This document shows positions 4,185 through 45,512 of a DNA stretch of 64,000 nucleotides, one piece after another. Both the position numbers and the translations under genes were made by a program. The notes below the pieces were generated by a model, which worked only from the letters and a program-made list of their open reading frames with translations, was not told the origin of the DNA and did not search any database. Position 1 is the first letter of the stretch. Each line of letters starts with the position of its first letter. Origin of the DNA: an uncultured Solirubrobacterales bacterium (GTDB lineage Bacteria; Actinomycetota; Thermoleophilia; Solirubrobacterales; 70-9). The stretch is taken from contig CAWAKK010000005.1 of NCBI GenBank assembly GCA_963782605.1, forward strand, positions 13,080 through 77,079, in the 5' to 3' direction.

Positions 4185-4239
4185 CTCGCCGAAAGCCCGC
4201 TCTCATCACACTCGAACCGCGCGCTTTACGATCTGAGCC

Positions 4240-12741: not shown

Positions 12742-15700
12742 ATGAGCCTGAGACCTCTCCTCGAGATCGCCGCCGAAGACGAGCGCTTCACAGCGCTCGC
12801 TGAGGCTGCCAGGGCAGGCGCGGAAAATGGGGCGGCGAGCACGGCGCTCGTCTCGCCGGCGATCCGGCCCTTCGTGCTCGCGGCGTTGCTCGACGATTCT
12901 GGGGCGCTCGGAGGCCGGCCGGCGCTGATGGTCGCGGCCGACGACATCGGCGCCCGCGATCTCACCAGGGAGCTGGCCGCGTACCTGGCGCCGCGGCGAG
13001 TTCGTTTCTACCCGTCGCGAGGCACGGGGTATGAGTCACATCTCACGCCACCCCCACATCTCGTCGGCCTGCGCATCGCCGCCTTGGATGCGCTCACGGG
13101 CTGGGACGGCTCGAACGGCGCTCCGGCGGAGCCGCCCGTCGTGGTCGCCGGCGCTGTCGCGCTCGCCGAAGCGGTGCCGGATGCGTCCCTGCGCCCGAGC
13201 GGATTCTCGCTTCGACGAGGGGAGGAGGTCGACCTGGATCTGGTCGCCGAGCTGCTCGTGGAGGCGGGATACGAGCGAGTCGACCAGGTTGAGGACCGTG
13301 GCCAGTTCGCGGTTCGGGGCGGCATCCTGGATGTCTTCCCCGCCACCTCCGAGCGGGCGGCGCGCCTCGAGCTCTTCGGCGACGAGATCGAGTCGATCAG
13401 GTGGTTCTCCACCTTCACCCAGCGCTCGCTCGGAGAGTCGGAGGGCCTCGAGCTCTCGCCGGCGGCCGAGCTGGCACTGGAGCATCGCGAGCTCGCGGAG
13501 GTTGCGCTGGACAACGATGATGAGACCGCGCGGCCGGACCTCGCGGAGCTCCTTCCCCTCGAATCCCTTCGTGCCCCCCTCGACTTGCTGCCTCAGGGGA
13601 CCGCCGTGCTGATCGCCGGCTCCGAGGAGATCGACCCGGCGCTGCGCGACCACTGGGACGACGTCACGACCGCGATGGAGGGCGCCGACGCGCGGCGCCT
13701 CTACGTCGACGTCGCAGCTGCGCTCGCGAGAGCGCTCCACGCTCACGCTCTCGGGCACCGACTCCGGGCAGAAGATCCAATTGCGCGCTCAGCCCCCGGC
13801 GTCTCCCGCGCGCACCCTCCGTGAGGCCGAGTCACAGCTCGAGCGCGAGCTGCGTTCGGGCTACCGAGTCGTGGTCGCGTTCGAGCACAAGGGCGAGGCC
13901 GAGCGGGCCCGCTACAACCTCGAGCGACTCGACGCCGAGGAGCTCGTCCCCGCTTCCCCCGCCGGGTCACCCGAGGCACGGGGTGGGCTGTTCTTCGTGG
14001 CGGCCCGCCTCGCGGACGGGTTCCTCTCGCCAGAGCTGAAGCTCGCGGTGATCCCGTACCGGCGGCTCGTTCACCGCCGGCGAGCCGCCGCTGCACCGGC
14101 TGTGCGCGGGCGCTTCGCCGCCGCCGTCGACCTGCGGGTCGGCGACTTCGTGGTCCACGAGGACCATGGCATCGCGCGCTTCGCGGGCTTCGAGACGAAG
14201 ACGGTGGGCGGGGTCACGCGCGACTACCTCGAACTCGAATACCGGGGCGAGGACAAGGTCTTCGCGCCCACCGACCAGCTCGCGAAGATCACCCGCTACG
14301 TCGGTGCCGGCGGCGATGCGCCGCAGCTCTCGGCGCTTGGATCGAAGCGCTGGGAGGCCGTCAAGGCGCGCGCTCGCCGGGCGGCGCGCGAGCTGGCCGG
14401 CGAGCTCCTCAACCTCTACGCTGAGCGCAAGGCTCGCAGCGGCCACGCGTTCGGCGCCGACTCGGAGTGGGAGCTCGAGCTCGAGCGCTCGTTCCCCTAC
14501 CGGGAAACCGCCGATCAGATGGAGGCGATCGAGGCCGTCTCCGCGGACATGGAAGCGGCGAGGCCGATGGATCGCCTCATCTGCGGCGATGTCGGCTACG
14601 GGAAGACCGAGGTGGCGCTGCGCGCCGCCATGAAGGCCGTAGCGGGCGGCAAGCAGGTGATGATGCTGGTGCCCACCACGATCCTTGCGCAGCAGCACCT
14701 CGGCACGTTCCGGGAACGATTGCGGGAGTTTCCCGTGGAGGTCGAGATGGTCTCCCGGCTGCGCAAGCCGGCGGAGGTCCGCGACACACTCGCCAGGTTC
14801 GGGGAGGGCAAGGTCGACATCCTGGTCGGGACGCACAGACTGCTCTCGCGCGATGTCCAAGCGGACGAGCTGGGGCTCCTGATCGTCGACGAGGAGCAGC
14901 GGTTCGGCGTTCGCCAGAAGGAGCTCCTGCGGCAGCTGAAGCTGAGGGTCGACGTGCTCTCGCTCTCGGCCACCCCGATCCCGCGCACGCTTCAGATGAG
15001 CCTCGCGGGACTGCGTGACATCTCGGTAATCGAGACCCCGCCGGAGGGCAGGCGGCCGATTCGCACCTATGTGGGCCCGTTCGAAGAGGAGCTGGTTGGG
15101 AAGGCGATCAGGCGGGAGGCCGCCCGCTCGGGCCAGGCGTTCTTCCTTCACAACCGCATCGACACGCTGCACGAAACCGCCGAGCGCCTGCGGGCGCTGT
15201 GTCCCGGTGTGAGGTTCGGCGAGGCGCACGGCCAGATGGACGAGCGCGACCTCGAAGCGGCGATGCTGGCGTTCCTGCGCGGCGAGGACGACTGCCTTGT
15301 GGCGACGACGATCATCGAGTCCGGGCTGGACATCCCGCAGGCCAACACCCTGATCGTCGAGCGCGCCGATCAGCTGGGCCTCGCGCAGGCCTACCAGATT
15401 CGCGGGCGGGTGGGTCGCGCCAAGGAGCGGGCGTTCGCCTATCTGCTCTATCCCTCTGAGGCGGGCATTCATCGCGACGCTGCGGCTCGCCTGGCGACAC
15501 TCTCCGACTACACGGAGCTGGGCTCCGGCTTCGCGATCGCGATGCGGGATCTCGAGCTCCGTGGCGCGGGGGATCTGCTCGGCGACGAGCAGTCCGGACA
15601 TGTCGCCGCCGTGGGCTTCGAGCTCTACGTCGCACTGCTCGACGATGCAGTCGAGGCGATGCGGGCGGAGGGCGACGGCGTTCGGGCCGAGGCGCGCGTG

Positions 15701-16159
15701 CGCCTCGACGTCGACGTCGACGCTTACCTGCCGGCCGACTACATCCCATTCGAGGCAGCGAAGATCGACGTGCACCGCCGCGTCGCCGGCGCGAGGGAGC
15801 CAGCCGAGCTCCGTGCCCTGCGAGACGAGCTGCGCGATCGCTTCGGCCCGCCGCCCAGCCCGGTGGAGAACCTGCTGGAGCTGGCCCGGGCCAGAGTGGA
15901 GCTGGGGCGGCTCGGCGCCAGGACGGTCGAGTTTCGCGGCGGACGCCTCTCCATCGTCCCGATCGAGCTGGAAGCACCAGCGGTCGGCCGCGTGCGCGAA
16001 CGGATCCCGGAGGCGATCTATGAAACCCGCACCAAGACCCTGGGGCTCCGCGTCGACGACGACCCCAGCTCGCGCCTGGAGGCGGTGCAGGCGCTCACCG
16101 CAGCGCTCGGTGACGCCGTGGCCCCAGGGGCCGGCGAGACCACGATGGCTTCCCGCTAG
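12742..16159 (+). pseudogene. mfd: transcription-repair coupling factor Mfd, split by one apparent frameshift
   Basis: About 330 N-terminal aa are in the frame of ORF 12742; the remainder is in the frame of ORF 13781. The switch lies somewhere between ~13690 and ~13760. Helicase motifs GDVGYGKTEVALRAA and DEEQRFG. mazG follows downstream. Confidence 0.88.
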
Positions 16160-20130: not shown

Positions 20131-20556
20131 TTGCGCGTGCCGAGCCCGATGACGGCGGGCAGAATGCCTCCCGGGAGCAGGACGACTCAACCAAGCGTCG
20201 AACCACCGGCCATGAGCGCGCGCTCCCAGGCCGCCCGCGGCGGCTATCGCTTAAAGCCGGTCCCCCGCCGTGGCGGCAGCCGGGCCAGCCGCATTCACTG
20301 GGACAAGCTCGGCCGTGTCGTGCTCGTGTTCGTGCTGTTCGCGATCCTCGTCTCCTACGTGAACCCCGTCGTCAACTTCGTCGACGCGTGGCGCGATGCG
20401 GGGGCGGAGCGGCTGGAGCTGCGGGAGCTCAAGCGTCAAAACCAAGCTCTCCGCGCCAAGGCGGGGAGCCTGGAGGGAGCGGCCGCGGCCGAAGGCGCGG
20501 CGCGAGCGCTGGGCATGGTCGCCACCGACGAAGCTCCCTACACGATCAAGCGCTGA
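20131..20556 (+). CDS. ftsB: septum formation initiator (FtsB/DivIC family)
   Basis: Single TM (VVLVFVLFAILVSYV) followed by a coiled coil (ERLELRELKRQNQALRAKAGSLE). Position directly after eno. Start uncertain, with several in-frame options. Confidence 0.75.
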   Translation: MRVPSPMTAGRMPPGSRTTQPSVEPPAMSARSQAARGGYRLKPVPRRGGSRASRIHWDKLGRVVLVFVLFAILVSYVNPVVNFVDAWRDAGAERLELRELKRQNQALRAKAGSLEGAAAAEGAARALGMVATDEAPYTIKR

Positions 20557-20607: not shown

Positions 20608-22836
20608 GTGTCTGACTTCTCGATCGGCCGCGCCGACGAGCGCATGCTGGGGGTCTTCGACTACCTCCTCGGCTTCGCCGAGCTCAGCCTGATCTTGGCG
20701 GCGCTCGGGTATGGCGCGGTTCGGATTCGCCGCCTGCTGCTGCCGGGATGGGGCGGGGCGCTGGGCCTGCTGGTCGATCTGGTCCTCGGCACTTCCGCCG
20801 CGGTGCTCATCTCCGAGCTGCTCGGCACCGTCGGGATCTTCGGCGAATGGGAGCTGATCGTGGCGGTGATCCTGTTTGCTGTCGGCGCGGCCGTCGTCTG
20901 CGATCGCGTCGGCGATGGACGCACGCCGGCGGCGGCGCCGGTGCCCCCGCAGCCGCCACACGACACCTTCCCGACGATCGTCGCAATGATCGGCGTCGCC
21001 GGCGTCGTCGCCGCGTGGATGGTCCCCACGCTGGGCACCCTCGCCGCGGGCATGGACCGGGCCGACTCCCTCTGGTACCACATGCCGCTCTCGGCGTCGT
21101 TCGTGCAGACGGGATCGCTCGGGGACATCTTCTACTTCGACCCGATTTTCTTCGCGTCGTTCTACCCGGCCAATTCGGAGGTCCTGCACGCGATCCCGAT
21201 GCTGGTCTGGGATCGCGACATCGTCTCGCCGCTGCTCAACATGGCGTTCCTCGGGATGGGACTCGTGGCCAGCTGGTGCATCGGCCGCCCCTATGGCGTC
21301 GGCCCCCAGGCGCTGATCGGAGGGTCGATTGCCCTAGGCGCCCAGATGCTGGTCGAGTTCCAGGCCGGAGAGGCCCTCAACGACATCGTCGGCGTCGTCT
21401 TCATCCTCGTCGCCGTGGCGCTGCTCGTGAACGGCTACGCCGCGCGGGCCCCGGGACAGAGCGACGGGCATTGGATCCCGGCAGGAGCATTGGCGATCGC
21501 GGGGCTCGCGACAGGGCTCGCGGCGGGGGTCAAGCTGTCGTTCCTGGCACCGGCCGCCGCGCTCACGATCGGCGTGATCGTGATCGCTCCGAAGGGGCGC
21601 CGCCTCTGGGCCGCAAGGGTCTGGAGCCTGCCCGCGATCGCCGCCGGCATCTACTGGTACGCGCGCAACGCGATCGCGACGGGGAACCCGATCCCCTTTG
21701 CGAGCTCGATCGGGCCGATCAACCTGCCGTCACCGGCGCGGGACTTCGAGCTGCGCCCGGGCCACGCCGTCGCCTATTACTGGAACGACATCGGCGTCTG
21801 GAGCGACTTCTTCGTCCCCGGGCTGATCGAGTCCTTCGGGATCCTCTGGCCGGTGACCCTGGTGGTCATGCTCGGGGGCGCGATGCTCGCGCTCGCGCGC
21901 CGCAACGATCCGATCCTGCGGCTGCTCGGCGTCGTCGTCCTCGTCACGACCGTCGCCTACCTGTTCACTCCGCTGACCGCGGCGGGCCAGGAAGGGAAGC
22001 CGATCGCCTTCGAGTGGAACCTGCGCTACCTCGCCGCCTCGGTGGCGGTGGGCATGGCGATGCTGCCGTGTCTGCCGATCGCGCGATCCACGGCACGACG
22101 ACGGCTGATCTCGCTGCTGGTGCTCTTCGCGATCCTGGCGGTGACGATCGGCTCACTGGTGCAGTGGAAACAGGGTCACGTGCGTGGGGCGGTGGCCGCG
22201 GCGATTCTGGTGATCGCAGGCACCGCGGCATTCAATTGGATGCGCTCCCGCGGCTACATCGGCCCTGCCGCTCGGCGGCGCTCGGTTCTGATCGCCGTGG
22301 CGAGCACCGTCTTTGTGGTCGCCGTGGCCGGTTGGTTCGAGCAGCGCCACTACTTAAAGCACCGCTTCGAGAACACGAGCCCCCGCCTGGGCCTGGCAGA
22401 TGCCCTGAGGTTCGGCCGCGACCTGCGCGACGGACGCGTGGCCGTTGCCGGGATCCGTGGCGTCTTCAACCAGTATCCGCTCTACGGGACCGATCTCTCC
22501 AACGACGTGCAATGGCTTGGCATCGAGGGGGAGCACAAGGCCTGGCTTCGGATCCCGACCTGCGAGCAATGGCGGGAGGCACTAAACGCCGGTGACTACA
22601 CGCACGTCTTCACGGCGTACGATCCCTATAACCCCGACCTCCTCAGCGACACGAAGGAGGCCCTTTGGACCCGCAAGGACCCGGCCTCCGAGACGTTGCT
22701 TCGGAAGGGGCCAGTGAGCGTGTTCGAGATCACTGGCGATCTCGACCCGGCGGGATGCGAGGGCCTGCCGTCGCTGAGCAAGGCCGAGCTGAACGGTCGT
22801 TCAGTGAACGCCGAACCGCTCGCCAACCAGCCCTGA
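20608..22836 (+). CDS. very large polytopic membrane protein, GT-C-fold glycosyltransferase-like, with C-terminal soluble domain
   Basis: 742 aa with at least 12 hydrophobic segments. The loop MDRADSLWYHMPLSASFVQTG resembles the acidic first-loop motif of the PMT/ArnT-type GT-C family. ~190-aa non-hydrophobic C-terminus. The fold call is inference. Confidence 0.6.
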   Translation: MSDFSIGRADERMLGVFDYLLGFAELSLILAALGYGAVRIRRLLLPGWGGALGLLVDLVLGTSAAVLISELLGTVGIFGEWELIVAVILFAVGAAVVCDRVGDGRTPAAAPVPPQPPHDTFPTIVAMIGVAGVVAAWMVPTLGTLAAGMDRADSLWYHMPLSASFVQTGSLGDIFYFDPIFFASFYPANSEVLHAIPMLVWDRDIVSPLLNMAFLGMGLVASWCIGRPYGVGPQALIGGSIALGAQMLVEFQAGEALNDIVGVVFILVAVALLVNGYAARAPGQSDGHWIPAGALAIAGLATGLAAGVKLSFLAPAAALTIGVIVIAPKGRRLWAARVWSLPAIAAGIYWYARNAIATGNPIPFASSIGPINLPSPARDFELRPGHAVAYYWNDIGVWSDFFVPGLIESFGILWPVTLVVMLGGAMLALARRNDPILRLLGVVVLVTTVAYLFTPLTAAGQEGKPIAFEWNLRYLAASVAVGMAMLPCLPIARSTARRRLISLLVLFAILAVTIGSLVQWKQGHVRGAVAAAILVIAGTAAFNWMRSRGYIGPAARRRSVLIAVASTVFVVAVAGWFEQRHYLKHRFENTSPRLGLADALRFGRDLRDGRVAVAGIRGVFNQYPLYGTDLSNDVQWLGIEGEHKAWLRIPTCEQWREALNAGDYTHVFTAYDPYNPDLLSDTKEALWTRKDPASETLLRKGPVSVFEITGDLDPAGCEGLPSLSKAELNGRSVNAEPLANQP

Positions 22837-22846
22837 GGGCAGCCGC

Positions 22847-25198
22847 GTGCTGATCTCGATCCTGCTTGCGCTTCTGGTCGTCTTGGCATCGCTCGGGGCG
22901 GGCGGGATCACGCTCGCGCTGTTGGGCGCCCGGCATCGAACCTGGCTCGCGGGCCCCGTGGGATTCGCGGCGCTCACGGTCATCGCGGGCCTCTGCATCC
23001 GGCTGCCTGGCCGGGCGGCGAGCGCGGCCGTCGTGATCGTCCTCGCGTTCGTTGCCGGTCTGCTCGTGGTGCGCATCGCAGCACGACGCCCGGTGGCTTC
23101 CACGGACGAGCCCGCCGGCACCCTGGGCGCCGGCGTCGCTGTGATCGCCATCGCGCTCGTGGCGGCGGCGATCCCGTTCGTGCTGGAGGGGCGAGCCGGC
23201 GTCCTTGGAGAGGGCATCTACACCAACGACCACGCCGCCCAGCTCTACTGGACCGACTGGCTCAAGGAGGGCTTCGGGCCCGAGCCGAGCGCGGTCGCCT
23301 GGGGATATCCGGTCGGCCCCCAGTCACTGGTTGCGGTGATCGCAGCGGGCACGGGCGCCTCGCTCATCGACGCGTTCAACGGGTTGCTGATGGCGATCCC
23401 CGCGCTCACCGGGCTTGCGGCTCTCGCGGTCCTCGGAGCCCTTCGGACTGTGCCCCGGATCGCCGTCGCGGTGCTCGCCGGGCTGCCCTTCCTCGGGGCC
23501 TCATTCCTGGCCCAGAGCGCGTTTAAGGAAACGACGATGGCCCTGCTGGTGATCGCCTTCGCCGCCACCTTGGCGCTGGCCAGCGAGCACGAGGTCGTGG
23601 GCGCGCCACGGCTCGGGCGAACCGCCGCCGCCGGGGCGGGGGTGCTTCTTGCCCTGGCGGCGCTTTTTGCCTACAGCGTCCCCGGCTTGGTCTGGTTCGC
23701 GCTCACGCTCTTGGGTTGGCTGGCCCTGCTCGCAGCGGTTGGCGAGCGCAGAGTCGACTGGGTAGCCGTCCGGGCGACGATCCGGCGCCGGCGGGTGCTG
23801 CTGGCGCTTGTGCTCTTGGCCGTGATCGGCGTCGCCGCCCTCACTGTCGGGCGTATCAGCGACTTCGCCGACCGTATCGGCCAGGTGCAGGCCTCGGCGG
23901 GGAGGCTCTCGTCGCCCGTGTGGCCGGGCGAGGCGCTCGGGATCTGGCCCGAGGGAGACTTCCGCGTGGTTCGCGGCGAGGTCAGCGGCTCCTTGGTCGC
24001 AACGGCGATCGGCGTACTCGTCGCGCTCGCCGGTGCCGCGGTCATGTGGCGCCGACGCGCCTATGCGCTGCTCGCTGCGCTGGGAGCAGCCGCCGTCATC
24101 TACATCGGCGCCCGCCTCTTCGCGAGCATCTACGTGGAGGCGAAGGCCCTGGCGATCATGGCGCCGCTGGTGATCGTGGTCGGAATCGGAGGGCTCATCG
24201 CGGCCCGTAGCGGCAAATGGGCGCGAGCGCTCCGCGGCCTCGGCATCGCCGCGCTGGTGGCCGGGGCGGCCTCCACGTTCCTGGCCTTGCGCGAGGCGCC
24301 CGTGGGCTTCTCGGACCGGGGCTCGGAGCTCGAGACGCTCGCCGAGCAGATCGAGGGCGAGCGAGTCGCATTCTTGGGCGTCGACCGCTTCGCCGCCTAC
24401 TGGCTGCGTGGCACGTTGATCGAGAGTCCCGGGGGCTACGTCCCGCCCGAGGTCCGCGCCCGCCCGCGGAAGGCTTGGCAACAGGGCCTCGCGATGGACT
24501 TCGACACGCTGGCGTCCGGGCGCCTTGATCGCTTCGATTACGCGATCACGACGACGGCGCCGTTTCAAAGCACGCCGCCGGCCAACTGGTCCGAGGTCGA
24601 TCGCACAGACTCATACGTGCTCTGGAAGCGGGAGGGGAAGACGCCAAAGACCGAGGTCTTCGAGCGGTCCGGGAGGCCTGGCGCACGGCTCGGATCGAGC
24701 GGGGCGTGCCGCCGCGCCGGCGAGGCCGTCGTGCTGCCCCGGCCGGTCGTCGGAAAGCGGAGTGGGTGGAGCCTGCCGAATCCATTCGCGCCACCAGCCA
24801 CAAGCACCCAGACGCTCGAGCTTGAGCCCGGGAGCTGGCTGCTCTCCCTCCAGTACCACAGCCAGGTCGACCTGACCGTGCGGGCGGGGGACCTCGAGGC
24901 GGAGCTGCCCGCGTCGTTGGTGGGCATGTACCTGACCCATCAAGGCCAGAGCGCGTTCTGGCAGGTCGGCGAGGTCGATGTCGAGCGAGGTGGCGCACTC
25001 GACGTATCGGTGGGTGCCGAGGAGCCCGGCGGGCTCGAACGGGCCATCGGGGCCGAGCGGCGCGTGTGGCTCGGCGAAGTCGCAGCCATGCGCGTCGATC
25101 CGCTCGCCGGGGACCCCGATGAGGTGCCGCTCGGCGATGCGTGCGGCGCCTACGTCGACCATGCCCAGCCGGGCGGAGGCAGCACAAACGTTGGCTAA
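22847..25198 (+). CDS. very large polytopic membrane protein (second GT-C-like/polymerase-like) with C-terminal soluble domain
   Basis: 783 aa, starting 10 nt after the previous stop. Many TM segments. Loop GIYTNDHAAQLYWTDWL. ~270-aa soluble C-terminus. No family assigned by eye. Confidence 0.55.
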   Translation: MLISILLALLVVLASLGAGGITLALLGARHRTWLAGPVGFAALTVIAGLCIRLPGRAASAAVVIVLAFVAGLLVVRIAARRPVASTDEPAGTLGAGVAVIAIALVAAAIPFVLEGRAGVLGEGIYTNDHAAQLYWTDWLKEGFGPEPSAVAWGYPVGPQSLVAVIAAGTGASLIDAFNGLLMAIPALTGLAALAVLGALRTVPRIAVAVLAGLPFLGASFLAQSAFKETTMALLVIAFAATLALASEHEVVGAPRLGRTAAAGAGVLLALAALFAYSVPGLVWFALTLLGWLALLAAVGERRVDWVAVRATIRRRRVLLALVLLAVIGVAALTVGRISDFADRIGQVQASAGRLSSPVWPGEALGIWPEGDFRVVRGEVSGSLVATAIGVLVALAGAAVMWRRRAYALLAALGAAAVIYIGARLFASIYVEAKALAIMAPLVIVVGIGGLIAARSGKWARALRGLGIAALVAGAASTFLALREAPVGFSDRGSELETLAEQIEGERVAFLGVDRFAAYWLRGTLIESPGGYVPPEVRARPRKAWQQGLAMDFDTLASGRLDRFDYAITTTAPFQSTPPANWSEVDRTDSYVLWKREGKTPKTEVFERSGRPGARLGSSGACRRAGEAVVLPRPVVGKRSGWSLPNPFAPPATSTQTLELEPGSWLLSLQYHSQVDLTVRAGDLEAELPASLVGMYLTHQGQSAFWQVGEVDVERGGALDVSVGAEEPGGLERAIGAERRVWLGEVAAMRVDPLAGDPDEVPLGDACGAYVDHAQPGGGSTNVG

Positions 25199-25210
25199 CC
25201 TCCCGCGCCG

Positions 25211-26194
25211 ATGAGGCGCCTAAACCCACCCCGCAGGGCGCGTCAGCGCAGGCCTGGGAAGAAGACCCCGGGAGGAGCCCCGCTTCGCGGCATGCGGCGG
25301 GTGCCGCCGGTGACCTTCGTCGGCGGGACCGGTCGCAGCGGCACCCACATCATCGCCAAGCTCCTTGGTCGTCACGGAAAGCTCTATCTGATTCCGGTCG
25401 AGTGCCGGTTTCACGTGGAGGAACGCGGCTTTCCGGGCCTGCTGGCGGGGACGACGACGAAGCAGGCCTTCCTGCGTCGCCTGCGCGGCTTTTGGTGGAA
25501 GGGGTTTCAGACGTCGCGTTTTCGGGGCCTTTATCGCTTCGTTCCCCGCGAGCGGTTCGACGACGCCGTGATGGCGTTCGATCAACGCTTCGACGACGAT
25601 GCGGAAGGTGCCTGCCGGGATCTGTTCTGGTCGCTGCTATGGCCGTACGAGGCCGAGGGGGAGGTGAGCGGGATCGTTGAGCAGAGCTGCGATTCGATCG
25701 CTCAGGCCGAGACGCTGCAGCGACTCTTTCCGGAAGCCGGCTTCGTTCATGTGGTCCGTGACGGGCGCGACGCCTCGGCCTCTCGGGTCGCACAGACCCG
25801 CGGCATCATCTACCCCCGCACCCGCGCCCAGGGGCTCGAGTGGTGGGAGGCGCGGATCCGCTCGATGGATGCCGGCGCGCGCACCGTCCCTCCGGAGCGC
25901 CTGCGCGAGATCAGCCTCGATGAGCTCCTCGAGGACGAGGACAACGAGATCCTCGCGGAGATCATGGGCGTCGTGCGCCTTCAGCCCGCCCGCATGGTGC
26001 GCAAGTTCCTGCGCAACCAGATGAGCACGCGTGGCGCCAACGCCGAACGATGGCGGCGGGGCGTCTCGGCCGGAAAGCGTGAACGGCTGGATCGCCTTTA
26101 CCTCGAGGCGCTTGACCGCCTCGAGGCCGACGGTGTGCGCACGGTGCCGCTCTTGCGGCAGACGTACGAGCGGCGCGCAAGGGTCGTCGCGTGA
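25211..26194 (+). CDS. sulfotransferase family protein (PAPS-dependent, Sulfotransfer_3-like)
   Basis: 5'-PSB-like loop FVGGTGRSGTH and 3'-PB-like HVVRDGRDASASRV. Paralogue of the next gene. An alternative start at ATG 25292 would give an N-terminus of the same length as the paralogue. Confidence 0.75.
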   Translation: MRRLNPPRRARQRRPGKKTPGGAPLRGMRRVPPVTFVGGTGRSGTHIIAKLLGRHGKLYLIPVECRFHVEERGFPGLLAGTTTKQAFLRRLRGFWWKGFQTSRFRGLYRFVPRERFDDAVMAFDQRFDDDAEGACRDLFWSLLWPYEAEGEVSGIVEQSCDSIAQAETLQRLFPEAGFVHVVRDGRDASASRVAQTRGIIYPRTRAQGLEWWEARIRSMDAGARTVPPERLREISLDELLEDEDNEILAEIMGVVRLQPARMVRKFLRNQMSTRGANAERWRRGVSAGKRERLDRLYLEALDRLEADGVRTVPLLRQTYERRARVVA

Positions 26195-27168
26195 GCGATC
26201 GCGAGCCGGCCCAGCTCGTATTCGTCGGCGGTACGGGCCGCAGCGGGACCCACATCACCGCCCGTCTGCTGGGCGAGCATTCGCGTTTCGCCGCCGTCCC
26301 GATCGAATGCCGCTTCCACTGCAATCCACGCGGCCTGGCCGAGGTGGTGACGGGCGAGACCACGCCCCAGGAGTTCGTGTGGAAGCTGCGCCGGTTCTGG
26401 TGGCACCGGGTCCGCCGGGGTGGCAGGGCGACCGTCCGCCTGCGCAGGTTCGTGAGTCGCGAGACCGGAGATTTCGGCGAGACGAAGGTGCGCGGACTGC
26501 ACCAGATCATGCCGCGGGAGCGCCTCGAGGAGGGCATCGCCGCCTTCGAGGCCGAGGCCCATGACGACGTCGCCGCCGCCTCGCGGGAGCTCTTCTTCCA
26601 CCTGCTCGGTCCCCTCGCTGCCGAGGAGGGCAAGCCCGCCCTGGTCGAGATGAGCTGTTTTACGATCGCCTCAGCACCCGGCCTGGAGCGGATCTTCCCC
26701 GATGCTCGCTTCGTTCACTCGGTGCGCGACGGTCGCGACTCCGGCTCATCGAAGGTCTCGAAGCGCCAGAAGGACCATCATCCCACCGACGCGACCTCTG
26801 GGATCGAGTGGTGGGAGGACCGGTTGACCCGCGCCGAAGAGGGTGTACGCGGACTTTCGGATCCTGTCGGGCGTCTGCATGCGGTCTCGCTCGACGACCT
26901 GGTCTGGGGGGATCGCGAGGCGAGCTACGCCGGCCTGCTCGAGTTCCTTGGGATCGAGGACGAGGCAGCCATGCGCCGTGTCTTCGATGAGGAGATGAAC
27001 GCCGGCGCGGCCCACCGTGAGCGTTGGCGGGAGGGTCATACGAGGGCCGAGCAGGACGCCATCGTTGCTGCCTACGAACAAGCGCTAGAGCGCATCGAGG
27101 CCGACGGCTTTCACTGTGCCGGGCTCCTGCGGCGCTCGTTCGAGCGAACCGCTCCGGCGCTCGGATGA
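26191..27168 (+). CDS. sulfotransferase family protein (paralogue of 25211..26194)
   Basis: GTGA overlap with the upstream gene. FVGGTGRSGTH and HSVRDGRDSGSSKV. Collinear similarity to the upstream ORF (ECRFH, WWE.R, ERWR). Confidence 0.75.
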   Translation: MSDREPAQLVFVGGTGRSGTHITARLLGEHSRFAAVPIECRFHCNPRGLAEVVTGETTPQEFVWKLRRFWWHRVRRGGRATVRLRRFVSRETGDFGETKVRGLHQIMPRERLEEGIAAFEAEAHDDVAAASRELFFHLLGPLAAEEGKPALVEMSCFTIASAPGLERIFPDARFVHSVRDGRDSGSSKVSKRQKDHHPTDATSGIEWWEDRLTRAEEGVRGLSDPVGRLHAVSLDDLVWGDREASYAGLLEFLGIEDEAAMRRVFDEEMNAGAAHRERWREGHTRAEQDAIVAAYEQALERIEADGFHCAGLLRRSFERTAPALG

Positions 27169-28694
27169 GCCGCGTCCTCTTCCTCTCCTCCAACGGCACG
27201 GGGTTGGGTCACCTGACGCGGTCGATGGCGATCGCACGCCGCCTCGATGGGCTCGATCCGTTCTTTCTCACCCTCTCGGGGGCGGCGCCGGTGGTCCGGG
27301 ACCAAGGCTTTCCCGTCGAGTACGTCGCTTCCTACTCCACGCCGGGGGCGGGAAGCAACTGGCGATGGTCGCGCCGGCTGCGCGGGAGGCTGCGTGCAGT
27401 TCTCGCCGAGTTGGCACCGGAGCTGGTCGTCTTCGACGGCGCCCACCCATACCAGGGACTCGTCGACGCGCTGCCGGCAGCCCGGGGTGCCACCCGCGTG
27501 TGGTGCCGGCGGGCGATGTGGAAGCCGGGCTCAAACCCCGGTGCCCTCGGTCGCGAGCGATCCTTCGACCACGTCCTCGAGCCGGGAGAGTTCGCCGCGA
27601 GCCAGGATCGAGGGCCAACCGTCGGGCGGCGGCCCCACGCGCACGTCGTGGACCCGATCGTGTTCTGCGCTGACGAGGACCTCTTGCCTCGCGCGGAGGC
27701 AGCTCGGGAGCTCGGCCTCGACCCGACCGCGACCTGTGTCTTGATCAACCTTGGCCAGGGCGAGGAGGTCCGGGGGCTGGCTGAGCGGTGCGTCGCGCAC
27801 CTCGCGGGGAGGAAAGGGGTCCAGGTGGCCGTGCTCTCCTCGGCGATTGCAGCGGGATTGGAGCCGCCGGATGGCGTCGTCCATCTGCGGGCGACGTACC
27901 CGATCTCCCGTTACTACCGGGCGATCGACGCCGCCGTCGCGGCCTCCGGCTACAACGCGTACCACGAGCTGATTCGCTGCGGCGTGCCGGCGCTCTATGC
28001 GCCGATGCGCAGGGAGACCGACAACCAGAGCGCGCGGGCTCGGTTCGCACAGGAGGCAGGGGTCGGCCTCTCGCTCGAGGGCGCTACGGCGGAAGCACGG
28101 CTCGACCAGCTGCTCGATCCGGTGGCCCTGGATCGCATGCGCGCCAAGCTGGTGGAGCTGCGTCCGGGCAACGGTGCCGACGATGCGGCCCGCTGGCTTT
28201 CTGACCTCGTCGCCTCCGGGAAGCCCAAGCCGCGGGCGAGGACAGGTGGCTGGCGCGCGCAGGTCCGAGATCTCATTTCGACCGCACAGAGCGACCCGGG
28301 CTCGCTGGCGCGCATGCCGCGCGAGCTCGCGGCGATCGCGCAGCAAACGATCGAGCGACCAGCGGCGAGAACGGTCGTCCTGGCGGTGGACGTCCCGGCT
28401 GGCGGCATCGAAGCGATCGTGGGCGACGCGCTCGCGCGGACGAGCGACCCCCCTGAGCGGGTGCTCGTGGCCACGGACTCACTTGAACTCGCGACACTGC
28501 GCGAGGCGGGCGTCGGGTTCGAGCACGTTCCCGCACGCGACGAGCCACAGGCACGGCTCGCCGCGGGCTCATATGAGGACTTCGTGGCGGCGCGCCTACG
28601 CCTGATCCTGGCCGAGCGCAGGCGTCCGCAGCGTTTCATCGCGATGGGCGAGACCGCTGAGGCGGTGGCTGCCTCCGGTACCCTGAGCGGCTGA
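27165..28694 (+). CDS. GT-B glycosyltransferase (MurG/GT28-like) with extra C-terminal region
   Basis: ATGA overlap. N-terminus FLSSNGTGLGHLTRSMAIARRL. GYNAYHELIRCGVPALYAPMRRETDNQSARA resembles the GT28 C-terminal donor-binding region. ~150 further residues are unassigned. Confidence 0.65.
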   Translation: MSRVLFLSSNGTGLGHLTRSMAIARRLDGLDPFFLTLSGAAPVVRDQGFPVEYVASYSTPGAGSNWRWSRRLRGRLRAVLAELAPELVVFDGAHPYQGLVDALPAARGATRVWCRRAMWKPGSNPGALGRERSFDHVLEPGEFAASQDRGPTVGRRPHAHVVDPIVFCADEDLLPRAEAARELGLDPTATCVLINLGQGEEVRGLAERCVAHLAGRKGVQVAVLSSAIAAGLEPPDGVVHLRATYPISRYYRAIDAAVAASGYNAYHELIRCGVPALYAPMRRETDNQSARARFAQEAGVGLSLEGATAEARLDQLLDPVALDRMRAKLVELRPGNGADDAARWLSDLVASGKPKPRARTGGWRAQVRDLISTAQSDPGSLARMPRELAAIAQQTIERPAARTVVLAVDVPAGGIEAIVGDALARTSDPPERVLVATDSLELATLREAGVGFEHVPARDEPQARLAAGSYEDFVAARLRLILAERRRPQRFIAMGETAEAVAASGTLSG

Positions 28695-28740
28695 GCAGGC
28701 AGTCAAGCGGCGTCGCAGCGCCACTGCTCGCATCACCCCC

Positions 28741-29664
28741 ATGGAGGCCTCAACCCGCACCATCGAGTCCAGCGGGCGGACCGTCCCAGAGAGCGCGGAC
28801 GCCGACGCCACCAGCGCGATCGCGCGGGGCGCGTTGCCGAACCTCGTCGTCGTCGGTGCCCAGAAGTGCGGGACCAGCGGGCTTCACTATCACCTCGGGC
28901 TGCACCCCGAGATCATGATGTCGAAGCCCAAGGAGCTCAACTTCTTCATCTCCGAGCGCGCATGGCCGCGCGGCGTCGAGTGGTATCGCGGCCATTTCGA
29001 CCCACGCGCCCGGGTTCGGGGCGAGTCGTCGCCGAACTACACGGCGTTTCCCCATCACCTCGGCGTTCCCGAGCGCATGCACTCCGTGATCCCGGATGCG
29101 CGTCTCATCTACGTCGTCCGAGACCCGCTGCTTCGGATGGCATCCCACTGGGTCCACAACTACGCGAAAAGGCGAGAGAAAGGCGATCTCGCGAAAACGC
29201 TGGCTCACCCGAACACCTCCTACGTCGTGCGCAGCCAGTACTTCATGCAGCTCCAGCAGTTCCTGAAGTACTACGACAGGGAGCAGGTTCTGGTGCTCCA
29301 GCAGAGCGAGTTCCGCAAAGACCGTCTGCAGGCCCTTCGGCAGGTGTTCGAGTTCGTGGGAGTCGATGCCGACTTCACCCACCCGAGCTTCGAGCGCGAG
29401 CGCCACGCCACGGCTCGCAAGACGCGAGCGACACGCCTCGCTGCCTGGCTCGAGAGCATGAGCAAGGGACGCGGCGGGCGCGTGCTTCCGCCGAAGGTGT
29501 GGTTCGCCCTCGACGAATACCTTCCGCTTCGCAAGTCCATCGAGCGGCCGGACGTCCGTGGCGCCCTGTCCGACGAGACGCTGCGCGTGCTTCGGGAGGA
29601 CGCGGAGCGCTTTCGCGACCTGGTCGGGCGGGACTTCCCGAGCTGGTCGATCTGGGACGTATGA
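28741..29664 (+). CDS. sulfotransferase (Sulfotransfer_1-like, heparan-sulfate-sulfotransferase-type motifs)
   Basis: 5'-PSB VVVGAQKCGTSGLHYHL and 3'-PB YVVRDPLLRMASHW. Confidence 0.8.
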   Translation: MEASTRTIESSGRTVPESADADATSAIARGALPNLVVVGAQKCGTSGLHYHLGLHPEIMMSKPKELNFFISERAWPRGVEWYRGHFDPRARVRGESSPNYTAFPHHLGVPERMHSVIPDARLIYVVRDPLLRMASHWVHNYAKRREKGDLAKTLAHPNTSYVVRSQYFMQLQQFLKYYDREQVLVLQQSEFRKDRLQALRQVFEFVGVDADFTHPSFERERHATARKTRATRLAAWLESMSKGRGGRVLPPKVWFALDEYLPLRKSIERPDVRGALSDETLRVLREDAERFRDLVGRDFPSWSIWDV

Positions 29665-31742
29665 GCCCCGCGTCAGGCGGCGGCGGCGATCCGAGCGCCA
29701 AGGGGGGAGCTCCCGGCGGAGCGGGCGCGGTCCTCGGATTCCGGGTGATCCGGTATTCGGGCGTTCAGGGGGTCGCCCTGGTGATCAGCAACATGCTGCA
29801 GCTCGCGACGATCGGCGTCGTCGCCGGCTTCCTCGGGGCGGCCGATCTCGGGCGCTACAGCCTGCTCCTGTTTTTGGGTGCGCTGGTGACGATGGCCTTC
29901 GGCCTCGCGGTGAAGCCCGGCACGATCCGCCGCACCTTCGGAGGCGGGGACGAAGACGATGAGGACGATGACGATGATGAGGAGGAGGTCTCGGGCGCGC
30001 CGAAGCGCAGCCTCGGCGCTGGGCTCATGTGGTCGATCGTGCTTGGGCTGGCCGCGACGGCACTCGTCGTCGCGTTGCGGGAACCTATCTCCGACCTCTT
30101 GTTCGGAGGAGATGCGGACACTGCGCTCGTGCTCTGGGCCGGGCTTCTCGGCGGCACGGGGGTTCTGTTTCGGGTCGGCTCGATCTGTCTTTGGTTCGAG
30201 CGCCGCCCGAGCGCCTTCCTGATCGCCGAGGTGGCGCGGCCATTGGTGGGGCTGGCGCTGATGACCGCATTGCTCGTCGCCGGGGGTGGTCTCGCGGATG
30301 CCGTGGCGGGAGTCGCGGTCGGAACGGGGGTGGCAGCCCTGCTCACGGTGATCCTGTTGCGCGGCAGCTTCGTGCCGAACCTGTGGCCGAGCGAAGTGGT
30401 GCCGATCGTGAAGGCGGCGGGACGCAGGGTGCCGATCGTGAGCTCGCTGTGGACGGTTCAAAACGCTGATGTCTTTCTGCTCTCCCGAGCGGTGGACGCC
30501 ACCGACCTGGGCATCTATACGCTCGCGGCCAGGCTCGGGCTCGTGGTCTCGTTCCTGCCTCAGGGCTTCCGCGTGGCGATGCGTCCGCTGCGAAAGAGCG
30601 CAGTCTTCAGGGCGGTTCAGAAGGAGTACGGGCGACCCACCGCGAAGGGCCAGCTGCTCGCCTACTTCGTGCTCGTCTGCATCTCGTCGATCCTCATCAT
30701 GGTGCTCGCCGGCGAGCTGATCGTGAGCCTGGCCCCTCCGGAGTTCGCCGATGCCGCGCCGCTGGTGCCGCTGACGGCAACCGCGCTGATCATGCCTCCG
30801 CTCTGGCGCACTATGAACGGCCAGACGAACTGGCCCAGCAAGTCCCGCGCGACGTTCGTCGCCGGCACCGTCGGAGCGGCGCTGGTCTTCATCGGCCTCT
30901 GCCTTGTCCTCGCACCGGAGATCGGGATCTACGCCCCGCCGGTGGCGATGCTGGTCGCCTTCGTCCCGCCGATCTCATATTTCTTCATCCGCTGCCAGCT
31001 GGGGCCCACGCCGATCGATTTCCCCTACGGCGAGGTCCTGCGCGGGCTCTTGATCGCAGTCGTCATCGGCGGGGGTTTCTTTGCGCTCCCGAGCTTCAAC
31101 CCGGTTCTGGAGGCGTTGGCGATCATCGTCCTGCTCGGCCTCTACGTGTCGCTCCTGTTCGTTTTTCGCGTCGTCCCCGAGAGCCATTGGCCGGCGATCA
31201 CTCAGATGGCCGGGTCCGTCATCTCGGGGCGCGGCGATCGGGTGAATCCCAGGCTCGGGCTGCGCTCGATCGATCCGGGTGATCGCGCCGAGCTGAGGTT
31301 GGCGATCACCGAGCGATTGCCGCCCGAGGCGCTCGCCGCGCCCGCGACCCGAGCGGACCCGGCGCCTCGCGACGAGGCCACGGAGTTGGAGCTGACGGAG
31401 GGGGCGCGCTTGGTGCGGGTGCTGCGACTCGCGGGCCGCAACGGTGGCGCTCCTGTGAGGAAGCGCTCCCGCCTCGATGGTGGCGTCGCGGAGTTCCTGT
31501 TCGCCGACGAGCCCATCGCCGTCCGCAACGCATCGATGCGGGCGCTGCTCGACCAGGGAGCGAGCGCCGACGACCTCCGAGGCCTCGAGGATCTGGTCGA
31601 GCACCTGGCAAAGGTTCCCCCAGAAGCCTGGGAGGGCGCCGCGCTCTCAGAGAGCCCACCCCGCACACGCCGGCTACGGGCGGGACGCCGCGCCCGCCAG
31701 ACCCTGGCGAAGACCGCCAAGTCGATCGGCAAGCGGATCTAG
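29661..31742 (+). CDS. MOP/Wzx-type polysaccharide flippase-like membrane protein with acidic loop and long C-terminal extension
   Basis: ATGA overlap; ATG 29661 in the frame of track ORF 28866. At least 12 hydrophobic segments. Loop GGGDEDDEDDDDDEEEVSG. The last ~190 aa are non-hydrophobic and Arg/Ala-rich. Confidence 0.6.
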   Translation: MSPASGGGGDPSAKGGAPGGAGAVLGFRVIRYSGVQGVALVISNMLQLATIGVVAGFLGAADLGRYSLLLFLGALVTMAFGLAVKPGTIRRTFGGGDEDDEDDDDDEEEVSGAPKRSLGAGLMWSIVLGLAATALVVALREPISDLLFGGDADTALVLWAGLLGGTGVLFRVGSICLWFERRPSAFLIAEVARPLVGLALMTALLVAGGGLADAVAGVAVGTGVAALLTVILLRGSFVPNLWPSEVVPIVKAAGRRVPIVSSLWTVQNADVFLLSRAVDATDLGIYTLAARLGLVVSFLPQGFRVAMRPLRKSAVFRAVQKEYGRPTAKGQLLAYFVLVCISSILIMVLAGELIVSLAPPEFADAAPLVPLTATALIMPPLWRTMNGQTNWPSKSRATFVAGTVGAALVFIGLCLVLAPEIGIYAPPVAMLVAFVPPISYFFIRCQLGPTPIDFPYGEVLRGLLIAVVIGGGFFALPSFNPVLEALAIIVLLGLYVSLLFVFRVVPESHWPAITQMAGSVISGRGDRVNPRLGLRSIDPGDRAELRLAITERLPPEALAAPATRADPAPRDEATELELTEGARLVRVLRLAGRNGGAPVRKRSRLDGGVAEFLFADEPIAVRNASMRALLDQGASADDLRGLEDLVEHLAKVPPEAWEGAALSESPPRTRRLRAGRRARQTLAKTAKSIGKRI

Positions 31743-31777: not shown

Positions 31778-32380
31778 CTACTCGTCGCCGTCGGCGCGGC
31801 GGATGATGATCTGCTCGGGCTCGATCGTCACCGTGATACGGCGGTGGCCCTTCCAGTTTTCGGCGTAGACGGGGTCGCCCTCAACCGCCGGGTCGAGCCA
31901 GAGGCCGAAGCCCTCGTCCTTGCCGTGATCGAAGGTCGCCTCGAGCCCTGCGCCCGGCCGCTTTGGGCCGCGCCGGCGGCGACGACGGCGCTTCCGGCCA
32001 CCCTCCCGCGCCGGGCTCTCCCCGTCGGACTTGGCGGCCACCTCTTCTCGCTCGTCGGCTCCGCCTTCCTCCGCTTCCTCCGCTTCCTCCTCTTCCACCT
32101 CTTCCTCTTCCTCTTCCTCTTCCTCCATGGCGGCCTCGATCTCGGCCTCGATCTCGTCGCGGAGATCGCTGTCGTCGGGCTCGCCTTCTTCGGCGGAGAG
32201 GTTGTTGCGGCGGATGAAGTCGCGCAACTCGGAGGCGGAGACCTCGAGCTGATGAGCGATCCAGGCGTCGGTCCTGCCCTGGCGGACCCAGGCCCGGATC
32301 TGGTTCAGCTGTGAGCGCATCGGCTTGCGGGCCATGAGCGCGGAGATACTAGTGGAGGACCGGATGAGCTCCGGGGCCAT
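31778..32380 (-). CDS. hypothetical protein: N-terminal HTH-like segment, poly-Glu tract, poly-Arg tract, small C-terminal domain
   Basis: QLNQIRAWVRQGRTDAWIAHQLEVSASELRDFIRRNN, then EEEEEEEEEVEEEEAEEAEE, then RKRRRRRRRGPKRP. Start uncertain (Met codons at 32380, 32335, 32320). Confidence 0.55.
   Translation of the reverse strand: MAPELIRSSTSISALMARKPMRSQLNQIRAWVRQGRTDAWIAHQLEVSASELRDFIRRNNLSAEEGEPDDSDLRDEIEAEIEAAMEEEEEEEEEVEEEEAEEAEEGGADEREEVAAKSDGESPAREGGRKRRRRRRRGPKRPGAGLEATFDHGKDEGFGLWLDPAVEGDPVYAENWKGHRRITVTIEPEQIIIRRADGDE
32062..32127. repeat. triplet/hexamer microsatellite-like tract (CCGCTTCCT x2, then CTCTTC repeats) encoding the poly-Glu run
   Basis: Read directly: ccgcttcctccgcttcctcc ... 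cttcctcttcctcttcctcttcctcc. Confidence 0.8.
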
Positions 32381-32481
32381 GGTGGCGTCGGTTGTCGGTG
32401 GCGGTGACGGGATTCAGCGGCTACCCTGATTTCATCACGCCGCGATGGGGGCATCCGGCGGCAAACTCGAACGGAAGCGAG

Positions 32482-32721
32482 ATGCTGGTCCTTACCAGAA
32501 AGACCAATCAGAGCATCATGATCGGGGACGATGTCGAGGTAACCGTGCTCGCGGTTGCCCGCGACAAGATCCGCGTTGGGATCAACGCACCTCGGGACGT
32601 TCCGGTCTTCCGCAAGGAGGTCTGGCTCTCGATCCAAAACGAAGGTGGGACCCTGGACGGCGAGGGCGATCAGCGGGAAGCAGCCGTCGCCGCCATCAAG
32701 GAGATCGAGAAGGCTGAGTAG
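32482..32721 (+). CDS. csrA: carbon storage regulator CsrA (RNA-binding translational regulator)
   Basis: MLVLTRKTNQSIMIGDDVEVTVLAVARDKIRVGINAPRDVPVFRKEVW aligns by eye with E. coli and B. subtilis CsrA (MLILTRR / MLVLSRK ... GI.AP..... R.E). GGAAG lies 6 nt upstream of the ATG. Confidence 0.88.
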   Translation: MLVLTRKTNQSIMIGDDVEVTVLAVARDKIRVGINAPRDVPVFRKEVWLSIQNEGGTLDGEGDQREAAVAAIKEIEKAE

Positions 32722-44527: not shown

Positions 44528-44723
44528 GCCGTCGCGAGCGCTACCGAGTGCTGTGGCGTGCGAGATGCTGCCCAAGGGCGCGGTCCTCCCTTTCTGCCAA
44601 CACGAGAATTGATTCGAAGTTTCGGTGCGGCCCGCGGAAGCCGCCGATTGGTCGCGGAACCAGCGCGAGCCGGGGGCACGCCACCCCCGGCTCGCCGCTT
44701 GCCCTGCCTGTGGGCTCTCGGTG

Positions 44724-45512
44724 CTATCCGTTGACGACGGGGTCGAGCTCCTCGTCGTCATCCGCGGGGTCGGGAGCGCCCCGGGCCACGTGCTCGCATG
44801 ATCCCGTCGGATGCGCCGGGTTTGCGTCGGTGATCACGTCGAGCTCATCGAGGCGGGCCCGATCGTCGCCCCTCCCGCAGGTGATCTCGTCGGCCTCACC
44901 GTCGCGGGCATGGAACTTGTCGTCACCAATGCCTCCCCAGAGGGTGTCGACGCCCGCGAGCGCGACATCCGTTTGGATCAGCGCCCAGAGGTTGTCGTCC
45001 CCGGCGTGGCCAGCGATCCGGTCGACGCCCTCCTGGGCGAAGATCGTGTCGCCACCGGAGCCGCCGCGGGCGCCGTCGTCCCCAGCTCCCGCAGCCATGC
45101 GATCGTTGCCGTCGCCGCCGCCGAGGCCGTCGTTACCGGGCCCGGCGCGCACGGCATCGCCATCATCGCCGCCGCGGAGCTTGTCGTCTCCATCAGCGCC
45201 GGCGATGTAGTCGTGCGAGTCGCCACCCTGGACGCCGTCGTTGCCCTCGCCGGCCTTGACGATGTCGCGGCCGTGGCCCGCGTTGACCCTGTCGTCGCCC
45301 TTGCCGGCGCGGACGCCGTCGTTGCCAGCCAAGGCCGCAACGCGGTCGTCCCCGGCTTTGGCGCTGATTCGATCGTTGCCACGCGAGCCGACGATCCTGT
45401 CGTCGCCGTCCGTGCCGATGATCGTAAGCGCAGCCGCGCTCGAGGCGACCACGAGCGAGACGGTGACCGTCGCCGCGCTCGTTCTCGCAAAGCCTCGTTT
45501 CAGTCCCTGCAT
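44724..45512 (-). CDS. secreted protein with hemolysin-type (RTX-like) calcium-binding repeats
   Basis: ATG 45512 with GGAGG 8 nt upstream. Signal-like N-terminus (SAATVTVSLVVASSAAA). About 15 consecutive G-x-D-D/G-N-D nonapeptide-like units (GTDGDDRIVGSRGNDRISAKAGDDRV...). Confidence 0.8.
   Translation of the reverse strand: MQGLKRGFARTSAATVTVSLVVASSAAALTIIGTDGDDRIVGSRGNDRISAKAGDDRVAALAGNDGVRAGKGDDRVNAGHGRDIVKAGEGNDGVQGGDSHDYIAGADGDDKLRGGDDGDAVRAGPGNDGLGGGDGNDRMAAGAGDDGARGGSGGDTIFAQEGVDRIAGHAGDDNLWALIQTDVALAGVDTLWGGIGDDKFHARDGEADEITCGRGDDRARLDELDVITDANPAHPTGSCEHVARGAPDPADDDEELDPVVNG

Follow-up and report, generated by a model that had tools for sequence, protein, structure and literature searches.

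We analyzed a 64,000-nucleotide stretch of DNA (contig CAWAKK010000005.1, hereafter the window) from an uncultured Solirubrobacterales bacterium, in which positions 20608-31742 hold seven tightly packed and intact open reading frames (ORFs) on the + strand, named g1 to g7 here. The first two, g1 (20608-22836, 742 amino acids) and g2 (22847-25198, 783 amino acids), encode polytopic membrane proteins with a predicted C-type glycosyltransferase (GT-C) fold. They are followed by two paralogous genes for soluble sulfotransferases of the type that uses 3'-phosphoadenosine-5'-phosphosulfate (PAPS), more specifically g3 (25211-26194, 327 amino acids, type A) and g4 (26191-27168, 325 amino acids, type B), both of the Sulfotransfer_3 family. 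Next come g5 (27165-28694, 509 amino acids), for a soluble B-type glycosyltransferase (GT-B) of the GT28/GT1 (MurG/SpsG-like) class, and g6 (28741-29664, 307 amino acids), for a third soluble PAPS-type sulfotransferase, which is of the Sulfotransfer_1 family (type D). The last gene, g7 (29661-31742, 693 amino acids), encodes a polytopic candidate flippase of the multidrug/oligosaccharidyl-lipid/polysaccharide (MOP) superfamily, of the Wzx type. Shorter starts were preferred for g5 and g7 over those of the longest ORFs (27024 and 28866), because the orthologue alignments begin at residues 1-20 of the chosen starts.

Adjacent genes overlap by 4 nt at three places (GTGA at 26191, ATGA at 27165, and ATGA at 29661) or are separated by gaps of 10, 12, and 46 nt, with a further 51 nt between g1 and the divIC-like gene upstream. 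This layout of seven + strand genes joined by 4-nt overlaps or short gaps had been described in an initial annotation of the DNA, whose coordinates and overlaps we could confirm. The same annotation had proposed three sulfotransferases carrying both PAPS-binding motifs, a GT-B, two giant GT-C-like proteins, and a flippase, and each of these assignments was supported, the three sulfotransferases by passing the Pfam gathering thresholds, g1 and g2 by the GT-C folds that Foldseek recognized in both AlphaFold models, and g5 and g7 by the matches of their orthologues.

Sulfotransfer_3 was matched by g3 (8.5e-15, 56 bits) and g4 (1.5e-16, 61.8 bits) at a gathering cut-off of 27 bits, and Sulfotransfer_1 by g6 (2.6e-16, 60.3 bits, cut-off 22). 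The 5'-phosphosulfate-binding (5'-PSB) motif reads GGTGRSGTH in g3 and g4 and GAQKCGTSG in g6, and the 3'-phosphate-binding (3'-PB) motifs of the three enzymes are VVRDGRDASAS, SVRDGRDSGSS, and VVRDPLLRMAS. Both motifs are invariant among orthologues: GTGRSGT and RDGRDASAS in 54 orthologues of g3, GTGRSGT and RDGRD in 58 orthologues of g4, and KCGTSG and VRDP in 61 orthologues of g6. A hydropathy scan revealed no hydrophobic segment in g3, g4, g5, or g6, and these four proteins are therefore predicted to be cytoplasmic, where PAPS is made. We found no papers on sulfotransferases in Solirubrobacterales.

Among solved structures, the closest to g6 is a bacterial sulfotransferase (3rnl, 1.2e-20), and heparan-sulfate 3-O-sulfotransferases (3e-16 to 6e-12) and the sulfotransferase domain of NDST (1e-10) were matched as well; judged by sequence, g6 is closest to carbohydrate sulfotransferases. 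A profile built from the Sulfotransfer_3 paralogues (types A, B, and C) had its best matches in the Protein Data Bank (PDB) with the protein-tyrosine sulfotransferases TPST1 and TPST2, at about 1e-13, while a single paralogue sequence matched TPST with an E-value of 0.005. The GGxxRSGT and RDGR motifs, as well as a Glu-x-Arg shortly after the 5'-PSB, are common to the paralogues and TPST. It might be, then, that g3 and g4 sulfate an acceptor other than a carbohydrate, such as a lipid, a quinone, or, in the manner of TPST or RaxST, the tyrosines of a protein or peptide. In that case, the genes for glycosylation would be mere neighbours or would act on the same protein. We consider this very unlikely. 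Protein-tyrosine sulfotransferases are the only well-populated Sulfotransfer_3 branch in the PDB, which holds few bacterial enzymes of this family, so the TPST match mainly mirrors shared family membership. Moreover, no precursor peptide, peptidase-exporter, or other gene for ribosomally synthesized and post-translationally modified peptides lies in or beside the cluster, g6 clearly belongs to the carbohydrate type, and the number of paralogues varies between species, as it does for glycan-decorating enzymes.

The window copy of g5 scores 17.7 bits with Glyco_tran_28_C, under the cut-off of 22. Among the orthologues, which carry the source annotation "glycosyltransferase", Glyco_tran_28_C was found in 26 of 27 (best 3.5e-10) and EryCIII-like_C in 23 of 27, and the best match of the g5 profile in the PDB is MurG (3s2u, 1.4e-4). 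Close to the N-terminus, the loop S9-N-G-T-G-L-G-H16-L-T-R (N-G-T-G-x-G-H-x-T-R) is invariant in 27 sequences, and we take this glycine-rich loop to be the counterpart of the MurG G-loop, of the G-x-G-x-G-H type. The protein also carries a C-terminal extension of about 150 amino acids. On the strength of its orthologues, g5 is thus assigned to the GT28/MurG-like GT-B enzymes. A homology search with the g5 profile returned within-clade orthologues only and gave no sign of the cassette outside the clade.

The window copy of g7 gave no Pfam match even at an E-value of 0.5. In an alignment of 23 sequences, consisting of this copy and 22 orthologues, Polysacc_synt_3 was matched by 22 sequences (best 5.7e-9), that is, all but the window copy, and Polysacc_synt by 17. 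The g7 profile found nothing meaningful in the PDB. We read g7 as a divergent Wzx-type MOP protein because its orthologues match the Polysacc_synt families, which makes it a flippase candidate whose identity is lent by these orthologues. In the hydropathy scan, residues 37 to 508 show some 10-12 hydrophobic stretches, where a MOP protein should have 12-14 transmembrane (TM) helices, and the C-terminal ~190 amino acids form a soluble tail. Between the early TM helices lies a conserved poly-Asp/Glu insert, GGGDEDDEDDDDDEEE (residues ~95-110, window ~29940-29990), in which D97, D100, and D102 are conserved across orthologues. MOP proteins do not usually carry such an insert, which may be related to a cation-assisted handling of a polyanionic substrate.

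Neither g1 nor g2 has a significant match in Pfam, NCBIfam (which supplied no informative names), or the PDB in sequence and profile searches, and by sequence neither can be placed in PMT_2, Arabinose_trans, STT3, or another of the described GT-C families; faint DUF6541 and TgpA_N matches occur in a few g2 homologues only. Paralogy of g1 and g2 was considered and rejected (hhalign probability 2.5%). We built AlphaFold models of both proteins from orthologue alignments, which are of good overall confidence (predicted local distance difference test 78.9 for g1 and 78.4 for g2, predicted TM-score 0.83 for each) and compared them with the PDB by Foldseek. For g1, 11 of the 14 best PDB matches are GT-C enzymes (ArnT, AftA, STT3, AglB, ALG9, Pmt4, DPY19, and AftB), among them ArnT 5ezm with an E-value of 1.3e-4 and a TM-score of 0.49. 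For g2, the matches include AftA 8if8 (E 3.6e-5, TM-score 0.45) and also EmbA/B, PglB, ArnT, and ALG9. The GT-C matches of the two proteins have probabilities of 0.98-1.0 and TM-scores of 0.3-0.49, and, given these modest TM-scores, a GT-C fold is predicted for both at the level of the fold only.

The two proteins differ in their C-terminal domains: that of g1 is of the alpha/beta type (residues ~597-742), whereas g2 ends with a beta-sandwich (residues ~560-775) that resembles carbohydrate-binding modules (CBM) of families CBM6 and CBM61 according to Foldseek. Behind the fourth TM helix, g1 contains the invariant loop G-M-D150-R-A-D153-x-L-W-Y-H-x-P and g2 the invariant loop Y125-T-N-D128, and the positive-inside pattern of the sequences would place both Asp-containing loops outside the membrane. 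More than 1000 close homologues of g1 exist, all labelled hypothetical and mostly from soil metagenomes and Solirubrobacterales metagenome-assembled genomes (MAGs); the whole family comprises 3667 clusters at 50% identity and has no Pfam model. Its distant members (~36% identity) occur in other contexts without any sulfotransferase. In one distant relative (L083, 776-6691), two tandem g1-family paralogues are followed by a PMT_2-type GT-C gene and adjoin fusA-tuf and ribosomal protein genes. No papers on envelope glycosyltransferases of Thermoleophilia were found.

The presence of STT3, AglB, and PglB among the structural matches raises the question of protein glycosylation, in which g1 or g2 would be an oligosaccharyltransferase that moves a sulfated oligosaccharide en bloc to surface proteins, like the haloarchaeal AglB. 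A MOP flippase does imply an oligosaccharide donor, and there is a precedent in Halobacterium, where an oligosaccharyltransferase transfers sulfated lipid-linked glycans (PMC11980604). Nevertheless, the best matches of g1 and g2 are ArnT and AftA, not oligosaccharyltransferases, and no WWDYG-type motif was seen in either sequence. A carbohydrate acceptor is what the CBM-like domain of g2 points to, and no candidate acceptor protein is encoded in the locus, which makes protein glycosylation improbable in our opinion.

In a scan for relatives, using one genome per species, 130 species were found to have a g1 relative, and 80 loci were retrieved, all from uncultured Solirubrobacterales or Actinomycetota MAGs, one being 98% identical to the window. 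Gene order was counted in the 69 loci with enough flanking DNA: g1 lies behind eno-divIC in 65, and all six downstream genes follow g1 in order in 52, each from a different species, so the expected co-occurrence of the seven genes as a unit is indeed observed in most relatives. The sulfotransferases are the variable part. The architecture of the window itself, A-B-D, was found in 26 loci, A-B-C-D in 12, and B-B-D and A-B-B-D in 11 loci each. A species has one to four sulfotransferases, and at least one stands behind g1-g2 in every locus (~80). This varying number of paralogues suggests species-specific sulfation codes, which may bear on recognition by phages and predators and on metal binding in soil.

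A few loci deviate further. Two of them, L061 and L065, lack g7, and L068 lacks g3/g4. In L025 (14597-22110) and L040 (14602-22222), g1-g2 are kept and orthologues of g3-g7 are absent; their place behind g1-g2 is taken by a LicD-methyltransferase fusion, by two or three GT2 enzymes that are extended at length at their N-termini, and by non-orthologous genes matching Sulfotransfer_3 (E 1e-36 to 7e-42). This suggests that one GT-C pair can be combined with different cassettes for sulfated glycans. That g3-g7 have been replaced by other, non-orthologous sulfotransferases is our strongest argument for the GT-C pair and sulfation being one process, since just such a pattern would be expected if a conserved transfer machinery were tied to a variable glycan cassette. 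It argues for the GT-C pair as the invariant core and for the sulfation module as the variable cassette.

The same loci can also be read as two neighbouring, independent systems. Here, g1-g2 would assemble or decorate a core wall polysaccharide that is not sulfated, using polyprenyl-phosphate sugars similarly to Aft and Emb, and g3-g7 would be responsible for another, sulfated product, either a glycolipid or a secreted oligosaccharide, exported by g7 with no GT-C step. The persistence of g1-g2 where g3-g7 are absent is in line with this, as are the three loci short of g7 or of g3/g4, the very large size of the g1 family, and the sulfotransferase-free contexts of its distant members. In addition, g1 and g2 are most like ArnT, AftA, and Emb, enzymes whose donors are polyprenyl-monophosphate monosaccharides, whereas the usual cargo of MOP flippases is pyrophosphate-linked oligosaccharides. 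Still, sulfotransferases are uncommon in bacteria, yet at least one lies directly behind g1-g2 in all of the ~80 loci, the replaced cassettes included. Gaps of 10-12 nt and translational overlaps run across the supposed boundary, and no other enzyme is present that could transfer or ligate the flipped product. We therefore regard two separate systems as unlikely, although this explanation deserves to be taken seriously.

We favor, as somewhat probable, the interpretation that the genes of the locus, as the components of one pathway, jointly make a sulfated glycoconjugate of the envelope in this uncultured Solirubrobacterales lineage. The overlaps, the short gaps, and the co-conserved order indicate that the genes are coupled. 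An enzyme encoded elsewhere would first make a polyprenyl-(pyro)phosphate-linked sugar, as there is no primer gene in the window, and the MurG-like GT-B g5, judging by its family, would add a sugar from a nucleotide donor at the cytoplasmic face. Then, g3, g4, and g6 would each put a sulfate from PAPS on a different position of the lipid-linked glycan, the presumed acceptor, and the resulting anionic intermediate would be flipped by the Wzx-type MOP protein g7. GT-C enzymes use lipid-linked donors, and g1 and g2, with their predicted fold, may use the flipped lipid-linked glycan as donor outside the membrane. One of the two probably polymerizes or extends the glycan, while the other, possibly g2 with its CBM-like domain, would attach it to wall polysaccharide, peptidoglycan, or protein. 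The families and folds of the enzymes are what the searches returned; we infer from them the substrate, the order of the steps, the acceptor, and the product itself.

Several observations weigh against such a pathway. Neither a priming transferase, an undecaprenyl-phosphate-sugar synthase (GT2), nor a Wzy or polysaccharide co-polymerase (PCP) was found in the window or in 83 fetched loci by Pfam and motif scan; GT2 genes are confined to the variants L025 and L040 and are missing from the window cluster. Motif scans of the window and the 83 loci for adenosine 5'-phosphosulfate kinase, ATP sulfurylase, CysD, and CysQ likewise yielded nothing except two spurious off-frame matches; for a route to PAPS, the strictly conserved PAPS-binding motifs are evidence of an indirect kind only. 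The initial annotation had reported no primer, nucleotide-sugar, or PAPS-synthesis gene in the window, which stands for the primer and PAPS genes and has to be amended for nucleotide sugars, as a GlmU-like gene is found at 4237-5673. The GT-C assignment comes from predicted models with TM-scores below 0.5 and has no support at the sequence level, and the window copies of g5 and g7 fall under the thresholds of the hidden Markov models. The Sulfotransfer_3 paralogues are, among solved structures, most like protein-tyrosine sulfotransferases, which allows a non-glycan acceptor. Lastly, there are distant g1-family members without a sulfotransferase and two loci without g7, and the modules can therefore work apart. 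The adjacency of the genes could also reflect a hotspot of envelope-glycan genes instead of one pathway.

Directly upstream of g1 lies an ftsB/divIC-like septum gene (20131..20556, +; Pfam DivIC E 1.3e-5, under the gathering score), the last member of a housekeeping string that reads glmU-prs-L25...mfd-SurA-like-mazG-eno-ftsB/divIC. The GlmU-like gene (4237-5673, +) encodes a bifunctional NTP-transferase/hexapeptide acetyltransferase for housekeeping synthesis of UDP-N-acetylglucosamine and is followed by the gene of the phosphoribosyl pyrophosphate synthetase (5313-6701, +). The mfd gene (12742-16123, +) is divided between two frames: in an alignment with the Mfd of a relative, 12742-13713 corresponds to residues 1-310 and 13733-16123, in another frame, to residues 317-1120. 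Either an assembly indel or a pseudogene would explain the split; the assembly may hold indel errors, and the seven cluster genes are intact.

Downstream of g7, a convergent ORF of 200 amino acids, d1 (31778..32380, -), has long acidic (Glu-rich) and basic (Arg-rich) tracts and no family match in Pfam. It is found after g7 in many related loci, and its membership of the cluster is uncertain. The next gene encodes a CsrA homologue (32392..32721, +; Pfam CsrA 1.4e-23), which is the downstream neighbour in most related loci and which we treat as context; no flagellar or FliW gene was seen near it. A scan of the locus for promoters and terminators gave no usable operon boundaries. The G+C content is about 69% all along the window and uniform over the region (0.69-0.70), and the position is kept across species, and a recently acquired island was accordingly rejected. 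Farther downstream, at 43022-45584 (-), a gene for an ECF-type (extracytoplasmic function) sigma factor with a long Gly/Pro-rich C-terminal extension adjoins that of an RTX calcium-binding nonapeptide-repeat protein. A Ppx/GppA phosphatase gene is found at 61352-62371 (-), ~30 kb from eno-ftsB. Many Actinobacteria have ppx close behind eno-ftsB, and if that gene order applies here, the glycan cluster would sit in, or have expanded, the eno-ftsB-ppx neighbourhood.

Descriptions of sulfated surface glycans from bacteria other than cyanobacteria are rare, and the proposed pathway, if true, would place abundant soil Actinomycetota, across a whole lineage, among the bacteria that sulfate their glycans. 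Two unannotated GT-C families would be gained as well, one of them having thousands of members, and the pathway would provide a defined gene set for engineering sulfated glycans and offer a testable idea on the source of the negative charge of the envelope in these monoderm-type bacteria. A bolder version, which we put forward as a speculation that is more likely wrong than right, is that widespread soil Solirubrobacterales have a heavily sulfated, wall-linked glycopolymer as their main anionic envelope polymer, with a role like that of teichoic acids. It would be made by an undescribed route in which PAPS-dependent sulfotransferases sulfate the lipid-linked unit in the cytoplasm and two new GT-C families, with no sequence relatives among described enzymes, polymerize and ligate it outside. 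The locus would be tied to ftsB, a gene of the divisome, by its place on the chromosome and possibly by transcription.

That no comparable described pathway is known, as the initial annotation has it, is too strong, since three known systems (synechan, the lactococcal pellicle pathway, and haloarchaeal N-glycosylation) each cover a part of the scheme, although none matches the whole. As regards the sulfotransferases, NodH, Stf0, RaxST, and TPST1/2 have the PAPS-binding fold in common with g3, g4, and g6, as well as both motifs, 5'-PSB and 3'-PB. NodH, Stf0, and RaxST act on soluble lipochitooligosaccharide, trehalose, or peptide acceptors, and we know of none of these enzymes, TPST1/2 included, that is encoded together with GT-C enzymes and a MOP flippase.

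As regards the GT-C pair, g1 and g2 are structurally closest to ArnT and the mycobacterial arabinosyltransferases Aft and Emb, with no detectable sequence homology. Emb and Aft combine a GT-C membrane domain with a C-terminal carbohydrate-binding-like domain, as is predicted for g2. Unlike the present scheme, Aft, Emb, and ArnT use polyprenyl-monophosphate monosaccharide donors, flipped by non-MOP proteins, and have no link to sulfation.

The lactococcal polysaccharide pellicle (PSP) offers a closer parallel for the extracytoplasmic steps: a lipid-linked oligosaccharide is assembled in the cytoplasm, flipped by a Wzx-family flippase, polymerized by the GT-C WpsI, and ligated to wall polysaccharide by the GT-C WpsJ (PMC9574508). 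As in this system and the streptococcal GacIJKL, the GT-C components of our cluster lack sequence conservation and are recognized by their fold. On the other hand, the GT-A synthase of undecaprenyl-phosphate-GlcNAc and its small activator (WpsA/B, GacI/J) have no counterpart here, and the window cluster contains no GT-A (GT2) polyprenyl-phosphate sugar synthase of the GtrB/GacI type that defines Gac/Wps systems. PSP and GacIJKL have no sulfotransferases, their anionic groups being glycerol or ribitol phosphate, and they belong to Lactobacillales, whereas the present host is of an actinomycetotal lineage.

In Halobacterium salinarum, the Agl system makes sulfated dolichol-phosphate glycans, which are flipped and then transferred by the GT-C AglB, and its genes are clustered around the GT-C gene (PMC11980604). 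Our proposed scheme would be alike in that a sulfated lipid-linked oligosaccharide is flipped before a GT-C transfer. The Halobacterium system differs in being archaeal and in having protein Asn as acceptor; its sulfotransferase candidates carry annotations as alkaline-phosphatase-domain proteins and have sulfatase-like BLAST hits rather than Sulfotransfer_1 or Sulfotransfer_3 enzymes, and g1 and g2 have no sequence similarity to AglB.

Sulfation and a flippase are found together in the synechan (xss) cluster of Synechocystis PCC 6803, which has two sulfotransferases and Wzx/Wzy, and for which sulfation of the lipid-linked unit was proposed to precede flipping (PMC8205485). Its authors had not seen sulfotransferases in other bacterial extracellular polysaccharide clusters (PMC8205485), and a 2026 paper describes wps-1 of Actinoplanes missouriensis, a predicted Wzx/Wzy cluster with two sulfotransferases (PMC13390465); sulfated polysaccharides in bacteria are otherwise said to be reported only from cyanobacteria (PMC8205485, PMC13390465). 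In xss and wps-1, as in the cluster described here, PAPS-type sulfotransferases of two Pfam families, one or more cytoplasmic glycosyltransferases, and a Wzx-type flippase are encoded together. Wzy, PCP, and a priming transferase are also part of xss and wps-1, and a synechan-type system is further defined by Wzy, PCP/OPX (outer-membrane polysaccharide export) proteins, and a priming phosphoglycosyltransferase, which are absent from the cluster and the 64-kb window, and in place of the eight glycosyltransferases of xss there is a single soluble one. Conversely, the present cluster has two GT-C-fold enzymes and three sulfotransferases (up to four in relatives) instead of two, and it lies on the chromosome beside ftsB and is conserved throughout a lineage. 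Its GT-C proteins fall outside every described sequence family, and, while it fits none of the synechan, PSP, and haloarchaeal schemes, it merges features of all three.

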